A DNA stretch of 64,000 nt, from the NCBI GenBank assembly GCA_032161105.1, contig JAVHTD010000016.1. One strand, 5' to 3'. The position numbers are program-made. Positions 9,001 through 18,000 of the stretch are shown here, one piece after another (positions within the stretch are counted from its first letter, which is position 1; each line of letters begins with the position of its first letter). The stretch is from Candidatus Thermosaccharophagus tengchongensis (GTDB lineage Bacteria; Armatimonadota; Fervidibacteria; Fervidibacterales; Thermosaccharophagaceae).

Positions 9001-12000
9001 TATGTCTGCGCCTCCATCTTGTTGATGACGACGCGTAGAACCTCTCCGTTTAACGCCTTGATCACTGTGGTGAGCAAGTCGTGTGTCATTGGGCGAGGCG
9101 GTTTCTTCCCAGAGAGAGCCATAGCGATGGCGAGCGCTTCCGAAGACCCAATCCATATCGGCAAATACTTCCGTGAGCCCTTGTCAACGAGCAAAACGAC
9201 CGGCTCACCAACTTTGTCAGTGACAACGCCGCTAACCTCAACGCGGATATAGTCGGATGGAACTACCTCCGGTTCCTTCTGCCCCGCCTTTGTAGCTACC
9301 TTACGGCTTCCAATGGCGTTGGCTTTGACCTGCTGTTCATCCCCCTTTGCCGCTCCAATTTGGTTTTTAACATTTGCGCCCTTGCCCCATCCCATGCGCT
9401 GCAGGAAAGGCGACATGGCATCTTCAAGTTTTTTCCATAACGACATTGCGACTGCCGCACCAAACAGAGCTGCAAGTGAACATGCCTTCATAAATTCCCT
9501 CCTCCACATGCGCTGCCTGATGTTGAGCATTTAAACCACCCCTCTTTGGCCGAGTTTCATAGCCCGCCATAAGTGGCATTATGCTATTATAAGCTTGGCG
9601 CAGAGCTCAGTTAATGTGCTTGTGTTTGGAGAGGAGTCCAAGCCGCGCCTCCGTCACATCTTCAATGCGTTGAGAAAGCAGGCACCCAAGCTCGTCTCAT
9701 TGCAAGCTTGTGTGCCTGCTACACCGATGGAGGCATTTTCATCTATGGCAAGAAAGCAATTGATTGAGGTGAGCGTGGAAAAGAAAGAACGAGAACTTCT
9801 GGCAACGCCTAAGGCACTCCTATTAGCCTTTGCTCTCGTCATCGGAATAACGGTTGCAGGTTGCTTTTCGGCATACTTGCGTTACGACCTAATTGGCACC
9901 GGTCATCTGCCACGCTGTGCGCTTTTCCCGATAATGGTGCTCACGCTCCTCAATAGCCTATGCAAGCGCCTCCTCGGCAGGGCAATCCTATCGCAATCCG
10001 AACTGCTCTTCATCTATTGCACGGTGCTCGTCATGACGGGCATACCGGGTCAACAATATGCCGATTACCTCTACCTCGGTCTTTTAGCGCCAGTGTATTA
10101 CTCGCATCCGAGAAACATGCCGGAGCTGCTCCAATACGATGTCCCGAATTGGCTCGCCTACATACCAAGCTGCTTTTTGCCCTCAAAAGACCCGCGCAGT
10201 GGGGTCATAGCATGGGCATTTGAAGGTATGTCCGAGGGTGCAAAGATACCGTGGCAACCTTGGGTCATCCCATTGATGGTGTGGACGATATTTTATGCAG
10301 CACTGTTCTATGCAGCGATAGGGATTGCCACCGTGTTACGCAAACAGTGGGTTGAAAATGAGAAGCTTGTCTTCCCACTCGCCCAAGTCCCAATTGAAGT
10401 TGCAGATGAGGTTCGCTTGGGAGCTCTGGTGCGTAACCCGCTGATGTGGGTTTGTTTCATGATCCCTACCTTCATTTACACCGTGCGTGCCATTCACATT
10501 TACTTCCCGAGCTTCCCCAACATCAACATCTACAGAAACTTTGGCGTCCTGTTCAGCGGGCGACCTTGGGATGTGCTCAACTATATGCCGCTTAACTACT
10601 ACTTTGACATGATCGGAATCACATACCTTATCACGACCGATGTCGGCTTCAGCTTCTGGTTCTTTTACATCGTTAGGAGGATGCAAATGGTCGTAAGGTC
10701 AGCTCTCGGTTTGACGGACTTTTATGTCCCGCTTGAGTTTCAGACCATCGGCGGGCTGCTCGCTCTATTCGCCATGCAAGTGTGGGTGGCGAGAGGATAC
10801 TTAAGGGAGTTCATCACAGCAGCTTTACACCGAGAGGGAAAAGGCAGTGCGAATCAGACAAGGGTATCGCCGCGCACAGCGCTCCTCATCATTTCCATCA
10901 GCTTTGTTGTTCTCCTTTTATTTGCGCGCGCCATTAACCTATCGCTGCATTGGGCTATGCTGCTTTTCGCCATCCACTTTATCTGGAGGATACTCGTTGC
11001 ACGAATGGTGGCTGAGGCTGGTCTCTTTGTCTTCTGGACACCATCACCACACACATTTATCGTCAGGGCATTCGGAAAGGATGTAATCGGTCCGAAGAAC
11101 ATCACCGGGCTCAACATGATCGGTTCAAAGCTGAACGACTCCGCAACATGCGTATTGGCTCAAGCTGTTCAGACAATGAAGATAGCCAATGCAGCTCGCC
11201 TGAACGAAATTCAAGTCCTCAAATTGACGATGGCATCGGTGCTCATTTCCATGCTCGCATGCCACCCAACATGCATTCACATACTCTACACAACACCAAT
11301 ACCAAAGATGGGTTGGTGGACAAGGGGCTATCCAGCTGGTATGGCTCGCACACTGCTCAACCAGCTCGTGCAAGACCAGAAAATGAAAACGGGTGACTAC
11401 ATCTCGCTCCTCTCCGGAGGCATCGTCACAATTGCGCTGTGCATGCTCAGGTGGCGTTTCCTCTGGTGGCCATTCCACCCACTCGGGTATGTGGCAGTAA
11501 ATGGGACTTGGTTTGGCGACAGGTATGGCTTCAGCATCTTCTTCGGGTGGGTGATCAAGGCGATGACGCTGTGGTTTGGCGGGATAAGGCTCTGGCAAAT
11601 GCTCAGACCTGCCGCAATGGGCTTGATACTCGGAAACACCTTTATCCTCTTCCTGCTGTTGCTCCTTCACTTCTTCAAGCCGACAAATGAGGTCGTCGTC
11701 ATTGAGTGATTTCAATTGCGCCCTACCAAACACCGTCATGCGAAATACCTTCCATGCTCCTCAACCGTTTCAACCATTGCCTTCAAATTCTCCCACTTGG
11801 CATCTGCGGGAACTTCATCACCCGTGACGAGTATGTAGGCGCCGCCTTCCATGCCCTCTGCAAGGCATCTCAATGTCTCCCTGCGCGCATCCTCAACCGT
11901 GCCGAATGAAAGCACGACACAGTTAAAGTTGCCCATGATGCAAACCCTGTCACCATACAATCGCTTTGCCTCACACAATGTTATGTCGCCTTGATTTGGT

Positions 12001-15000: not shown

Positions 15001-18000
15001 GTCTGGGGGCTGTGGTCTGTGACTGGAGCTGAGGTGTTCTCAAGATATGGAGTGTGGTTCGGATAAAAGCAGCTTATAAAATGTGGCTCACCTTGGAAGG
15101 CGATATTCCAGCCAAATCAAGACTTTGCGTCAGTTGGGCATTTGCTTCCCCACAAAAACACGGAAACCCATCGGGGGGTGAAACAATGGGCAGCATGAAA
15201 TGGCGCAATACGAGGCGAGGCAGCTCAAAGAACAAAAGCACCGATGCTGTGCCGCTATGGGCGGGCAGGTTCACGGAGAAGCTATCAAGGGAGGCATTTT
15301 CATTCTCATCGTCATTCCCTTACGATAAACGCCTGTGGAAGTTTGACATAGCCGCAAGCATAGCGCATGTGCGCATGCTCGGGGCATGCAATGTGATTTC
15401 CGATGGCGAGAGCAAATTGCTCTCAAGCGAGCTTGAAAAAATGATGCGAGAGATAGAGTTGGGCAAGCTCAAGCTTGAGGGAGAGTATGAGGACATACAC
15501 TCGTTCGTTGAGAGTGCCCTCACGAAGCGAATTGGTGATGTCGGAAGGAAGCTGCACACGGCGCGCAGCCGAAATGACCAAGTCGTAACGGATATGAAAC
15601 TGTGGATGCGCTCAGCGATAGCGAAGCTGTGCGAGGCTATCTGTGAGCTGTGTGAGGCGCTTCTATCGGTCTCGCAGAAGCACATTGATTTTCTCATGCC
15701 CGGATTTACACACCTGCAACATGCACAACCAATTCGCCTATCGCATCACCTCATGGCTTACTTTTGGATGATGCAACGGGATGCCGAGAGATTCATGAGC
15801 TTACACGAGCGCACAAATTTATCGCCGCTCGGCGCCGGGGCGCTCGCCGGAGTTGATTTCCCGATTGACCCACGCATGACCGCAGAGATGCTCGGATTTG
15901 ACGGGTGTATGCAAAACAGCATTGATGCGGTGAGCGATAGGGACTTCATCATTGAGTTCATTTCGTGCTGCGCAACCGTGATGATTCACCTGAGCAGGCT
16001 CGCAGAAGAACTCGTCCTTTGGAGCGCGCCCGAATTTGGTTTCATCAGGCTGAGCGAATCGCTATGCACGGGGAGCAGCATGATGCCACAAAAGCGCAAC
16101 CCGGATATGGCTGAGTTGATGAGGGCGAGATGCGGCAGGGTCATCGGCGCACTCGTTGCGCTCCTGACCGCACTGAAAGGCTTACCGCTCTCATACAATC
16201 GTGACTTGCAAGAGGACAAGTTGGCTATGTTTGAGGCATTTGATGTCACGCATTCGTCAATTCGCATGGCTGCGGCGCTGATCACAACCGCAGAGTTTGA
16301 CCGTGAGAGGATGCGCTCATCTCTCATCGGCGATTTCTCAACAGCGACCGATTTGGCAAGCGAACTTGTGCGCAAAGGTATACCATTCAGGCAAGCACAC
16401 TCAATTGTCGGGAAAATCATAAGGGAGCTCATCCGGCAAGGCAGGACGCTTGAAGATGTCACAGTTGATGAACTAAAGCGGCACTGCGATGCGTTTGACG
16501 AGGCTTCATTGATGGCTATCAAGCCCGAGGTCTCCGTTGAGAGGCGAGTTGAGTTGAGCGGGACGGCAAAGGCATCTTTGAGGCGGCAGTTTGCCGAGGG
16601 TAAGCGCTTCATCAAGAGGCTGCAAAAGTTTGTTGCCGGGTTGAAATTGTTTGGAGAACCTTAGAACCTTAAACGGGCAAGGTGTGGGGGTGCTTTAGCC
16701 TTGGCTTTTGAACCATCACGGCATCGGTGAGGTGACAGCGATGCAAAAGTTTGCGTTCCGAACTCAAGCTGTCCCACTCGGATATGAGGGCGTCTCATTA
16801 CAAGTTGACGGCGTTGAAGTGGTCCGCTACCAAACTGGGATGAATGCATGGCGTCCATTTCTATTCCCAGTGTTTGGTCCGTCTGGGAGAATGGTCACTC
16901 GCATCGGTCATCCGCATGACCCACATGGGCACCGCCATCACTACTCAATCTGGATGGGACACGCCAATGTCAACGGGCTTAACTTTTGGAGCGATGACAC
17001 GAACAACAAACAAGTTCATCGGCGCTTCATTGAACTCGGAGATGGCATTGATAGAGCGTGGTGCGCTGTTGAAATTGATTGGGTGGCAAATGGAGCAAAG
17101 CCATTGCTGCGTGAGCGCCGAACAATAGCCATGACATATCCGCGCAAACCCGATGATCACAAAGGGTTTTGGCTGCTTGACATCGTGAGCGAGTTTGAAG
17201 CGCTTGAAGAGACCGTCACCTTCGGTGTAACTCCATTTGGGCTGCTCGGCGTGCGTGTGGCGAAGTCAATGGGAGTCCGTGACGGTGGCGGACGAGTCAT
17301 GAACAGTAACGGGCAAATCAATGAGCGCGAGACGATGGCACAAAGGGCGGCATGGTGTGATTATTCTGGATGGGTGGCTGAGGGCGTTTGGGAGGGCATT
17401 TGCATTTTTGACCACCCGCAAAACTTTGACCATCCACCTGCATGGCATGTCCGTGACGATGGCTGGTTCTGCCCGTCGCACTTCCGCCATATGAGTCTAC
17501 ACATCGCTAAGGGTCACTACGCGAAATTCCGCTACAGGATCGTTATACACAGCACGGGGTTTGAAAGGGAGGAGCTCAACGAGCTGTATCGCCAGTTTGA
17601 AGGGGAGTTCAAAGGTTGACGATAGTTTGAACCAAGGGTGAGGCATCAGCTGCACTTGCTCCCTTGACTCGCCGCGCCGTTCAATCATGGCACCGGGCGC
17701 ATAGCTGTTTTGGTGCCGATTTAAGCAAGCCCTTGATGCTGGATGCATGTGTTGAATGGCACATTGTGCACTGCTCCATAGGTTGCTTTGAATGATGATG
17801 CTTCAACTCAAACTCAAGTTCGCTGTGGCATTTATCGCACGCGGATGGAACGAGCGCTTTGCCGAGGGCTAAACGGCTGTTTTGCTTCTCAACTGCATGA
17901 CATGAAGTGCATTGAAGCTGCCCCTTCGCTGTTGGCGGATGGGAATACAGCTCCCCCCACCCCTTCGGTGGTTCTTTCGCACTGCCTCCCTTCACATAGA

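Follow-up and report, generated by a model that had tools for sequence, protein, structure and literature searches.

Genes in the window

The window, meaning the whole 64,000-nucleotide stretch analyzed from a contig of Candidatus Thermosaccharophagus tengchongensis (Armatimonadota), carries three genes, here called copies a, b, and c, whose products are plain members of the Pfam families DUF6785 (PF20581) and DUF6784 (PF20580), with no difference from them (Table 1). All three pass both gathering cut-offs (25 bits for DUF6785 and 26.4 bits for DUF6784); copy a scored 399 bits to DUF6785 (residues 21 to 516) and 78 bits to DUF6784 (residues 554 to 645), together with 588 bits against a profile of the family, and copy b scored 409 and 70 bits. 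This Pfam search reproduces the arrangement described in the genome-wide survey's note, a DUF6785+DUF6784 pair flanking a URO-D gene at 9745 to 15066; copy c lies beyond that region, with an amino-acid-kinase gene 56 nt upstream on the same strand. No NCBIfam model was found for copies a and b.

Table 1. Features of the window discussed in the text
Feature	Coordinates	Strand	Remarks
Copy a, DUF6785+DUF6784	9745-11709	+	654 aa; assigned here as a divergent OPT-superfamily membrane transporter
URO-D-like gene	11736-12872	-	Pfam URO-D 93 bits; between copies a and b
Copy b, DUF6785+DUF6784	13003-15066	+	687 aa as read; protein used for modelling
Argininosuccinate-lyase-type gene	15054-16664	+	Lyase_1 and ASL_C2; downstream of copy b
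DUF6807 gene	16708-17619	+	DUF6807 239 bits; after the argininosuccinate-lyase-type gene
Copy c, DUF6785+DUF6784	19401-21368	-	655 aa; DUF6785 442 bits, DUF6784 106 bits
Amino-acid-kinase gene	21425-22312	-	Upstream of copy c
YfhO-like gene	24343-26739		

Several gene starts require comment. The longest ORF of copy a begins at 9595, and the start at 9745 is provisional. Copy b probably begins at 13045, giving 673 aa, and its database counterpart (P0004, 99% identity) is also 673 aa long. The argininosuccinate-lyase-type gene probably starts downstream of 15054, because its Lyase_1 domain begins only at residue 71 of the ORF, and the apparent 13-nt overlap with copy b is doubtful. The URO-D-like gene, one of 16 such matches in the genome, is convergent with copy a (26-nt gap) and divergent from copy b (130-nt gap); the NCBIfam models for MtaA/CmuA and hemE scored far under their cut-offs, ruling out a HemE or typed MtaA identity.

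A family of old paralogues

A genome-wide search with the DUF6785 model recovered 13 intact frames, the number previously claimed, including the three in the window, and both DUF models matched end to end in 13/13 paralogues and in all 58 sequences of a family alignment. When the family profile was searched against the 3,114 ORFs of the genome, the 13 paralogues scored 537 to 818 bits and everything else 6.7 bits or less. Copy b shares 22 to 33% identity with the other paralogues and 45 to 52% with its counterparts in other lineages; since the latter resemble it more closely, the 13 copies are old paralogues. DUF6785 is characteristic of one phylum, the Armatimonadota, in which 127 of 151 sampled genomes encode it, typically in at least nine copies each, with up to 58 first-look candidates in a single genome. 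Beyond these genomes, the family profile retrieved 8,948 cluster representatives (50% identity) at an E value of ≤0.001 among 1.84 billion.

Predicted structure and fold match

An AlphaFold2 model of copy b, built from the 58-sequence alignment with no templates, had a mean pLDDT of 92.8 and a pTM of 0.92, with residues 1 to 36 disordered. Foldseek matched it to the barley Yellow Stripe 1 transporter in the PDB (7wst_A; E value of 4.9e-8, probability 1.00, TM 0.60/0.67, 664 columns, 14% identity), and the runner-up had an E value of 3.8e-2 and a TM of 0.11. An independent, non-Foldseek aligner searched against about 48,000 representative chains returned 7wsr_A, the same transporter, with a Z score of 24.4 and an rmsd of 3.8; 557 of 600 YS1 residues were aligned, spanning residues 45 to 682 of the model and 46 to 671 of the chain, and the next match had a Z score of only 5.8. 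The model therefore has, across its whole transporter unit, the fold of an OPT protein of solved structure, and the superposition on barley YS1 alone, reported earlier from a separate model with nearly identical Foldseek figures, is borne out by a second method. The YS1 structure was released in 2022, after the training cut-off of AlphaFold2, so the match was not memorized. A phmmer search of the family protein against PDB sequences gave no match. Of eight tryptophans described earlier as conserved, seven recur in the new alignment after a 14-residue start offset (W191, W198, W220, W254, W324, W624, and W631).

Sequence similarity to OPT proteins

The Pfam OPT model (PF03169; gathering score, 25.8 bits) found no match in copies a and b by hmmscan up to an E value of 10, in agreement with the earlier report on copy b, and the window proteins are thus not members of Pfam OPT; likewise, none of the 58 aligned family members matched at an E value of ≤0.01, and the best paralogue of the genome reached 15.4 bits, under the gathering score. 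A wider search was more informative. Among Armatimonadota genomes the OPT model picked 15 ORFs, of which 1 is a true OPT and 11 are DUF6785+DUF6784 proteins; five of these 11 also match OPT by hmmscan, the best at 37.7 bits (E value of 1.3e-9; residues 41 to 637 against OPT 2 to 583 of 623), which passes the gathering score, and three more lie at 24.9 to 25.7 bits. The family profile matched 93 of 120 true OPT proteins (best, 32.2 bits) and none of 120 reversed decoys, and its best match is colinear (profile 163 to 634 against protein 115 to 609). The reverse direction is weak: a narrow OPT profile matched 34 of 119 real sequences and 0 of 119 decoys, with a maximum of 9.4 bits, and hhalign of the family alignment against a narrow OPT alignment gave a probability of 21%. 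Four motifs are shared between the family and OPT: RRQW.E.ERLvFP with LRRYL..EhgKLaFPEG, P.liGlGYL with TPALLGVGYI, aRIraEaG with ARIVGIVG, and PfFlGliLGhf with FASGLVAGDA.

This colinear similarity is new evidence for OPT kinship beyond fold likeness, and with the second structural alignment and the clean decoy controls it backs the earlier proposal of a so far unrecognized OPT-like family. The assignment of DUF6785/DUF6784 to a distant branch of the OPT superfamily is well supported. The caveat that annotation pipelines may already label members as OPT-like is partly justified in that one member exceeds the Pfam OPT cut-off; in addition, eggNOG tags a "hypothetical protein" of Fervidibacter sacchari, a putative family member, as OPT superfamily, and the Atlas clusters automatically named "peptide transporter family protein," the closest outside both DUFs, are a lead only, with scores of 0.77 to 0.79 (<0.8).

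Transporter inventory and gene context

The genome is 97% complete. We recovered three SBP_bac_1 matches and five Sugar_tr matches in four frames, where the earlier inventory had listed two and three; its two SSF genes, and its lack of any OPT above the cut-off, stand. The accompanying statement that there are almost no sugar ABC systems holds for the oligosaccharide type, with four BPD_transp_1 matches in three frames and only two ABC systems of that type, but not for the monosaccharide (CUT2) type, as four BPD_transp_2 permeases are present, one next to the gene for a Peripla_BP_4 sugar-binding protein, with a PfkB kinase gene nearby, and another fused to ABC ATPase domains and adjoining a GFO_IDH_MocA gene. 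Neither an Opp/Dpp binding protein (SBP_bac_5) nor PTR2 was found.

Gene neighborhoods were sampled at 37 loci from 36 other Armatimonadota genomes, a set biased toward best-scoring matches (batch 1 and half of batch 2) and OPT cross-matching members (ten batch 2 loci). A carbohydrate-active gene (glycoside hydrolase, esterase, sulfatase, sugar kinase, or sugar-isomerase-like) occupies position ±1 in nine loci, and the sole control for this adjacency is its fall-off with distance, from about 10 of 73 neighbors at ±1 to 4 of 73 at ±2 and 3 of 70 at ±3. Tight same-strand sets include AP_endonuc_2-DUF6785-GH39-DUF6785, LacI-DUF1559-DUF6785-GH66, DUF2961-DUF6785-AP_endonuc_2, DUF6785-MFS_2 beside GH42, and DUF6785-PfkB. 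Peptidases or amidases (S8, M19 dipeptidase, S9, and CN_hydrolase) stand at ±1 in four loci, while the neighbors at about 24 of the 37 loci, and of most of the genome's own 13 copies, give no pointer to a substrate.

Three of those 13 copies adjoin carbohydrate-related genes (3keto-disac_hyd, an SASA carbohydrate esterase, and DUF4838) and three adjoin URO-D-like genes. None of the three window copies lies within a sugar operon, and the gene order around copy b is not conserved across 12 Fervidibacter-lineage loci. Proximity to GFO_IDH_MocA oxidoreductases, offered earlier as a sugar clue, fails in this genome: such a gene lies within two genes of 1 of the 13 paralogues, which is chance level because the genome has 48 copies (expectation per paralogue, about 4 × 48/~2,500 genes, with the gene number estimated). 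No siderophore or nicotianamine genes were seen among about 250 neighbors scanned.

Discussion

We consider it reasonably probable that these proteins are single-chain secondary transporters of the OPT/Yellow-Stripe superfamily and that the old paralogues differ in substrate, some serving sugars and others perhaps peptides or amides. Each DUF6785+DUF6784 protein would be one such transporter, with the two Pfam DUFs corresponding to the N-terminal ~500 and C-terminal ~100 residues of a single OPT-type unit. If barley YS1 is a guide, a substrate-carrying core domain may move against a scaffold domain in an elevator mechanism, bringing in a rather large organic solute together with protons; the putative import direction, coupling to protons, and dimerization are each borrowed from YS1. 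Divergence in substrate among the 13 paralogues is most likely, and a sizeable share of Armatimonadota members are probably importers of oligosaccharides, glycosides, or modified sugars, because carbohydrate breakdown is the commonest informative context across the phylum. Where the neighbor is a peptidase or amidase, the cargo may instead be peptides or amide compounds. The sole recurring substrate clue for copies a and b is the URO-D-like neighbor.

The proposal of the survey's note was narrower, casting the family specifically as oligosaccharide or glycoside importers and the organism's main sugar uptake route, which we judge rather unlikely. Carbohydrate enzymes are indeed the commonest informative neighbors, some of them in compact operons that include LacI-type regulators, three of the genome's own copies adjoin such genes, oligosaccharide-type ABC systems are scarce, and the family is strongly multiplied both here and elsewhere. 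Yet the window copies stand outside sugar operons, peptidase and amidase neighbors also occur, and the CUT2-type permeases, two SSF genes, and about four MFS sugar-porter-like genes offer other routes; the GFO_IDH_MocA adjacency is at chance, and the 23% of genomes cited earlier as having at least one such adjacency is unimpressive because of the many copies. A broader version is possible but still somewhat unlikely: the family would be the chief means by which Armatimonadota take up oligosaccharides and glycosides, and might play this part in further glycan-degrading phyla without SusCD and with few CUT1 ABC systems; each paralogue would be tuned to a different glycan fragment, and copies beside URO-D-like genes might import methylated sugars for demethylation.

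Characterized OPT members transport oligopeptides or metal-chelates, and the family could accordingly import peptides or other amino compounds in place of the missing Opp/Dpp and PTR2 systems; no true OPT was found in this genome either. An M19 dipeptidase lies directly upstream in one locus, S8 and S9 peptidases and two CN_hydrolases with an M14 carboxypeptidase are among the neighbors in other genomes, and the Atlas names point the same way as a lead. These names, however, probably stem from the weak OPT likeness itself, the adjacency is rarer than that of carbohydrate genes, and a genome with thirteen to fifty peptide importers would be unusual; we hold this reading to be quite unlikely. 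Retention of the whole YS1 architecture, with no catalytic domain detected in Pfam searches of the window proteins and aligned members, makes it very improbable that the proteins are membrane enzymes or that they export or flip envelope glycans or lipid-linked sugars, despite GtrA-type, GT2, and GT1 glycosyltransferases and YfhO-like and LptC-related proteins near some copies (a YfhO-like gene lies in the window itself), as these envelope neighbors are few and not conserved. Least credible of all is uptake of metal-chelates: the only solved structural relative transports Fe(III)-phytosiderophore, but identity to it is just 9 to 14%, the neighborhoods scanned lack siderophore and nicotianamine genes, and at least 13 copies would far exceed the needs of metal uptake.

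Our preferred assignment to a substrate-diverse OPT branch gives DUF6785/DUF6784 a mechanism open to testing and makes a role in nutrient import likely. Neither DUF carries an assigned function, and our literature search found no paper naming either one and, as far as it shows, no published OPT link. The family is also a source of candidates for the oligomer uptake systems that are missing in polysaccharide degraders of this phylum, Fervidibacter among them, and, if some members do carry oligosaccharides, neutral or modified carbohydrates would be a new substrate class for the superfamily.

Comparison with known systems

The OPT superfamily (TC 2.A.67) includes the YSL branch to which HvYS1 (PDB 7wsr and 7wst) belongs. 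The model of copy b has its architecture in common with HvYS1 over nearly the full length, and the proteins are alike in size (about 650 to 690 aa) at 9 to 14% identity. The YS1 report (PMC9691689) describes a proton symporter built of core and scaffold domains with inverted repeats, and an elevator model for it, and, together with the near-complete superposition of the predicted structure, this would imply a core and scaffold architecture with inverted repeats here as well. The proton-site aspartates of HvYS1 are D446, D490, and D494. At its C terminus the copy b model has a short, conserved, strand-like segment (Y.VWFG); YS1 carries its dimer-forming C-terminal strand at this position, and we infer that the two may be equivalent. 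Unlike HvYS1, the DUF6785+DUF6784 family is prokaryotic and has multiplied to 13 copies. Bacterial OPT proteins (PF03169), such as a 637-aa OPT in another Armatimonadota genome (L015, 342 bits), fall in the same length class and share weak colinear profile matches in both directions and the four motifs, whereas the OPT hallmarks GSSSSPVSG and DLKTG, invariant in the OPT alignment made here, are not conserved in the family consensus. True OPT is rare in Armatimonadota, with 1 clear case in 151 genomes, compared to 127 of 151 for DUF6785.

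DUF6785+DUF6784 genes in the window and the genome

Three members of the DUF6785+DUF6784 membrane protein family (PF20581 and PF20580) are encoded in the window, and we refer to them as copies a, b, and c. The genome-wide survey's note had placed two of these genes on either side of a URO-D gene and counted 13 paralogues in the genome, and both points were borne out by our Pfam and genome searches; in this genome (2.74 Mb, 97% complete) the DUF6785 model recovered 13 intact frames, against 0 in 14 control genomes. The names carried by homologues assign the genome to Armatimonadota. 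The intervening URO-D-like gene matches the NCBIfam models for MtaA/CmuA (61 bits) and hemE (27 bits), both far under the cut-offs, and because it is convergent with copy a and divergent from copy b, no pair among these three genes is predicted to be cotranscribed. The other copies in this genome share 22 to 33% identity with copy b, whereas copy b and its counterparts from other lineages are 45 to 52% identical, indicating that the duplications within the family are old.

Elsewhere in the window, the product of the gene at 927-3884 is an unusual pilus/secretion ATPase with possible cyclic-nucleotide-related domains, and no Pfam family matches at an E value of ≤1e-6 for several long ORFs (1222, 413, 334, 506, 679, 547, and 340 aa).

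Coordinates and domain content of features in the window
Feature	Position	Strand	Description
MshEN fusion gene	927-3884	-	985 aa; MshEN, type II/IV secretion ATPase (T2SSE), double zinc ribbon, GAF, HD_5
Copy a	9745-11709	+	654 aa, polytopic; DUF6785 (399 bits) then DUF6784 (78 bits) in Pfam
URO-D-like gene between copies a and b	11736-12872	-	378 aa; URO-D (93 bits)
Copy b	13003-15066	+	687 aa, polytopic; DUF6785 (409 bits) then DUF6784 (70 bits) in Pfam
Argininosuccinate-lyase-type gene	15054-16664	+	after copy b
Long ORF(s) without Pfam family	18338-19360	-	
Copy c, third family member	19401-21368	-	directly downstream of amino-acid-kinase gene
Amino-acid-kinase gene	21425-22312	-	before copy c
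Long ORF(s) without Pfam family	22575-24218	+	
Long ORF(s) without Pfam family	31205-32209	-	
Long ORF(s) without Pfam family	32276-33517	-	
Long ORF(s) without Pfam family	33475-37143	-	
Trio and GH95-like gene	37385-44194	+	AP_endonuc_2, DUF6807, GFO_IDH_MocA, then 1035-aa GH95-like protein with Laminin_G_3
Long ORF(s) without Pfam family	48398-51997	-	
Second URO-D-like gene	54746-55963	+	

A distant branch of the OPT superfamily

An AlphaFold2 model of copy b, computed from a 58-sequence alignment without templates, reached a mean pLDDT of 92.8 and a pTM of 0.92, with disorder in residues 1 to 36 only. Foldseek recovered two significant chains in the PDB, both of them barley Yellow Stripe 1 (YS1), a member of the OPT superfamily; the match to 7wst_A had an E value of 4.9e-8 and TM scores of 0.60/0.67 over 664 columns at 14% identity, and the runner-up after YS1 had an E value of 3.8e-2 and a TM score of 0.11. 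A Foldseek-independent search of ∼48,000 representative chains aligned 557 of 600 residues to 7wsr_A (Z 24.4, rmsd 3.8; model residues 45 to 682 versus chain residues 46 to 671), with the runner-up at Z 5.8. The YS1 structures were released in late 2022, after the AlphaFold2 training cut-off.

Copies a and b produced no match to OPT (PF03169) in Pfam up to an E value of 10 and matched 0 NCBIfam models, and a phmmer search of PDB sequences returned 0 matches. Likewise, the Pfam OPT model matched 0 of the 58 aligned family members at an E value of ≤0.01, the best score for a paralogue in this genome being 15.4 bits. We also ran this model over 151 Armatimonadota genomes, where many frames of ∼660 to 700 aa matched, and extracted 15 ORFs for hmmscan: 1 is a true OPT protein (342 bits), 11 are DUF6785+DUF6784 proteins, and 3 match no Pfam family. 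Of the 11 DUF6785+DUF6784 ORFs, five also match OPT, with one exceeding the gathering score (37.7 bits, E value of 1.3e-9, residues 41 to 637 versus OPT positions 2 to 583 of 623) and the remaining four scoring 25.7, 25.4, 24.9, and 20.6 bits.

A profile built from the DUF6785+DUF6784 alignment matched 93 of 120 true OPT proteins and 0 of 120 reversed decoys, and the best of these OPT proteins (32.2 bits) aligned colinearly, with profile positions 163 to 634 against protein residues 115 to 609. When the same profile was run against 3,114 six-frame ORFs from this genome as a further control, the 13 paralogues scored 537 to 818 bits and all others ≤6.7 bits. Four motifs occur in the same order in the DUF family and in OPT. 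The reverse test with a narrow OPT profile was weak (maximum of 9.4 bits), with 34 real sequences matched versus 0 decoys, and hhalign gave a probability of only 21% between the family alignment and the narrow OPT alignment; we judged the link on the HMM tests with controls, in place of hhalign. By sequence, the family lies outside the Pfam OPT family as it is defined, and its placement within the OPT superfamily, as a true but very distant branch, is well supported. The survey's OPT-like reading and its observation that YS1 is the sole clear fold match are both upheld, with Foldseek figures in agreement with its own, as is the lack of a Pfam OPT match that it had reported for copy b, and the profile tests add sequence evidence tying the DUF family to OPT.

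Distribution, naming, and further OPT-like candidates

The family profile recovered 8,948 representatives at an E value of ≤0.001, 6,790 at 1e-10, and 3,663 at 1e-30, and family members were found in 127 of 151 sampled Armatimonadota genomes; in that survey the best nine matches were scored per genome, and first-look candidates numbered up to 58 in one genome. Homologues carry the public names "DUF6785 family protein" or "hypothetical protein." Literature searches recovered, in the library covered, no paper with DUF6785, DUF6784, PF20581, or PF20580 and, among the papers listed, nothing relevant on OPT-type transporters and oligosaccharides in related phyla; a 2026 preprint on OPT evolution leaves the DUFs unmentioned in its main text. 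The supplements of an RNA-seq study of Fervidibacter sacchari (PMC11535203) contain neither "DUF6785" nor "DUF6784," and that study lists one "OPT superfamily oligopeptide transporter," WP_018195293.1, a label derived from eggNOG for what NCBI calls a "hypothetical protein," with expression varying only ∼3-fold across eight substrates (Supplementary Data 4). Because five Fervidibacter-lineage genomes have no match to Pfam OPT at an E value of ≤0.01, this protein may be a member of the DUF6785+DUF6784 family.

The three extracted ORFs without a Pfam family in hmmscan (L021:835-2964, minus strand; L036:1459-3336, minus strand; L038:4-1872, plus strand) are ∼620 to 710 aa, come from other Armatimonadota genomes, and match the OPT model weakly in the six-frame search, at up to 27.9 bits. 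The ORF at L021 has an ERLpFPL motif in common with the family alignment, at an hhalign probability of only 10%. These ORFs may constitute a further hidden OPT-like branch. A language-model search for look-alikes outside the two DUFs recovered clusters automatically named "peptide transporter family protein" and one cluster that is partly OPT; their scores, 0.77 to 0.79, make them leads only.

Transporter inventory and genomic neighborhoods

The family had been proposed as the main sugar uptake route of a genome with almost no sugar ABC systems. Our inventory recovered matches to BPD_transp_1 (4 matches in 3 frames), BPD_transp_2 (4), SBP_bac_1 (3), Sugar_tr (5 matches in 4 frames), and SSF (2), with 0 to SBP_bac_5 or PTR2 and none over the cut-off to OPT. 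One BPD_transp_2 gene adjoins that of a Peripla_BP_4 sugar-binding protein, with a PfkB kinase gene nearby, and another is fused to ABC ATPase domains and adjoins a GFO_IDH_MocA gene; one SSF gene (C20:7612-8826, minus strand) is directly downstream of the paralogue on that contig, on the same strand. On this inventory the genome is poor in oligomer importers, whether for sugars or peptides, but sugar ABC systems are present nonetheless.

Adjacency to GFO_IDH_MocA genes, which had been reported in 23% of genomes, is weak evidence because the family is multicopy. This genome encodes 48 copies of GFO_IDH_MocA, and such a gene occurs no more than two genes away from only 1 of the 13 paralogues, approximately the chance expectation; we therefore rejected this linkage as substrate evidence here. 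URO-D-like genes have 16 matches in the genome, none resembling HemE or typed MtaA, and 2 of these adjoin 3 of the 13 paralogues, which is above the chance expectation yet represents two events only; on contig C26 the URO-D-like neighbor of DUF6785 is followed by a ThuA-like gene. Other immediate neighbors of the paralogues include 3keto-disac_hyd, a SASA esterase, DUF4838, GNAT and nitroreductase genes, a HEAT-repeat protein, and housekeeping genes.

The argininosuccinate-lyase-type and amino-acid-kinase genes lie beside copies b and c, and an OTCase gene (L044:12548-13618) lies three genes from the copy on contig C34; such arginine-pathway-type neighbors are probably the remnant of one arg neighborhood and not a functional link. 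A contig scan with the query P0016 recovered 12 Fervidibacter-lineage loci, none from F. sacchari, and none of the window neighbors (URO-D, argininosuccinate lyase, DUF6807, kinase, cytochrome) recur within 10 kb of the copy b counterparts at these loci. In two Fervidibacter species of the census described below, a divergent GFO_IDH_MocA gene is kept beside the copy b counterpart. In one MAG the tblastn match to this counterpart breaks into two adjacent segments that differ in frame (L059:7263-9195; 7263-8066 and 8068-9195), suggesting either a frameshift or misassembly.

For a broader census, we selected 40 loci across 39 further Armatimonadota genomes, blind to their neighbors: 30 top-scoring matches, with one or two taken from each family, and 10 members that cross-match OPT. 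Three (L112, L121, and L124) were left out since the ORF caller and family profile recovered no member, leaving 37 loci in 36 genomes. A carbohydrate-active gene is an immediate neighbor at 9 of the 37 loci, as a raw count: GH39, GH42, GH66, an MGH1-like hydrolase, DUF2961 (twice; GH172), a sulfatase, Polysacc_deac_1, and PfkB. Several of these loci are tight same-strand sets, two of which include LacI-type regulators, and at one DUF2961 locus a xylose-isomerase-like TIM gene lies on the opposite side of DUF6785. Tallied by distance, carbohydrate-active genes account for about 10 of the 73 neighbors at ±1, falling to 4 of 73 one gene further out (±2) and to 3 of 70 at ±3. Peptidases or amidases (S8, M19 dipeptidase, S9, and CN_hydrolase) are immediate neighbors at 4 of 37 loci, at 3 of 37 a gene for URO-D or for RACo, the corrinoid activator, occurs no more than three genes away from DUF6785, and at ∼24 of 37 the neighbors are uninformative on substrate. 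In one genome a MacB_PCD/FtsX permease gene (L103:8980-10278, minus strand) is convergent to the DUF6785 gene. Among the neighbors scanned around the 13 copies of this genome, none was a giant peptidase-like FtsX protein.

The family is probably heterogeneous, and for a share of its members the likeliest class of substrate is carbohydrates. Sugar uptake is plausible for part of the family, and this support does not extend to the genes in the window or to the proposal of a main sugar route.

Comparison with Yellow Stripe 1

The YS1 structure paper (PMC9691689) describes a proton symporter whose core and scaffold domains are both built from inverted repeats, with a proposed elevator mechanism and dimerization through a C-terminal strand. 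By analogy with YS1, DUF6785+DUF6784 proteins may act as importers, couple transport to protons, and form dimers. We view the family as highly diverged transporters of a kind already known, in which the whole YS1 architecture appears to be kept; a conserved Y.VWFG tail at the C-terminus forms a short strand in the model, and in YS1 the C-terminal strand is the dimer contact.
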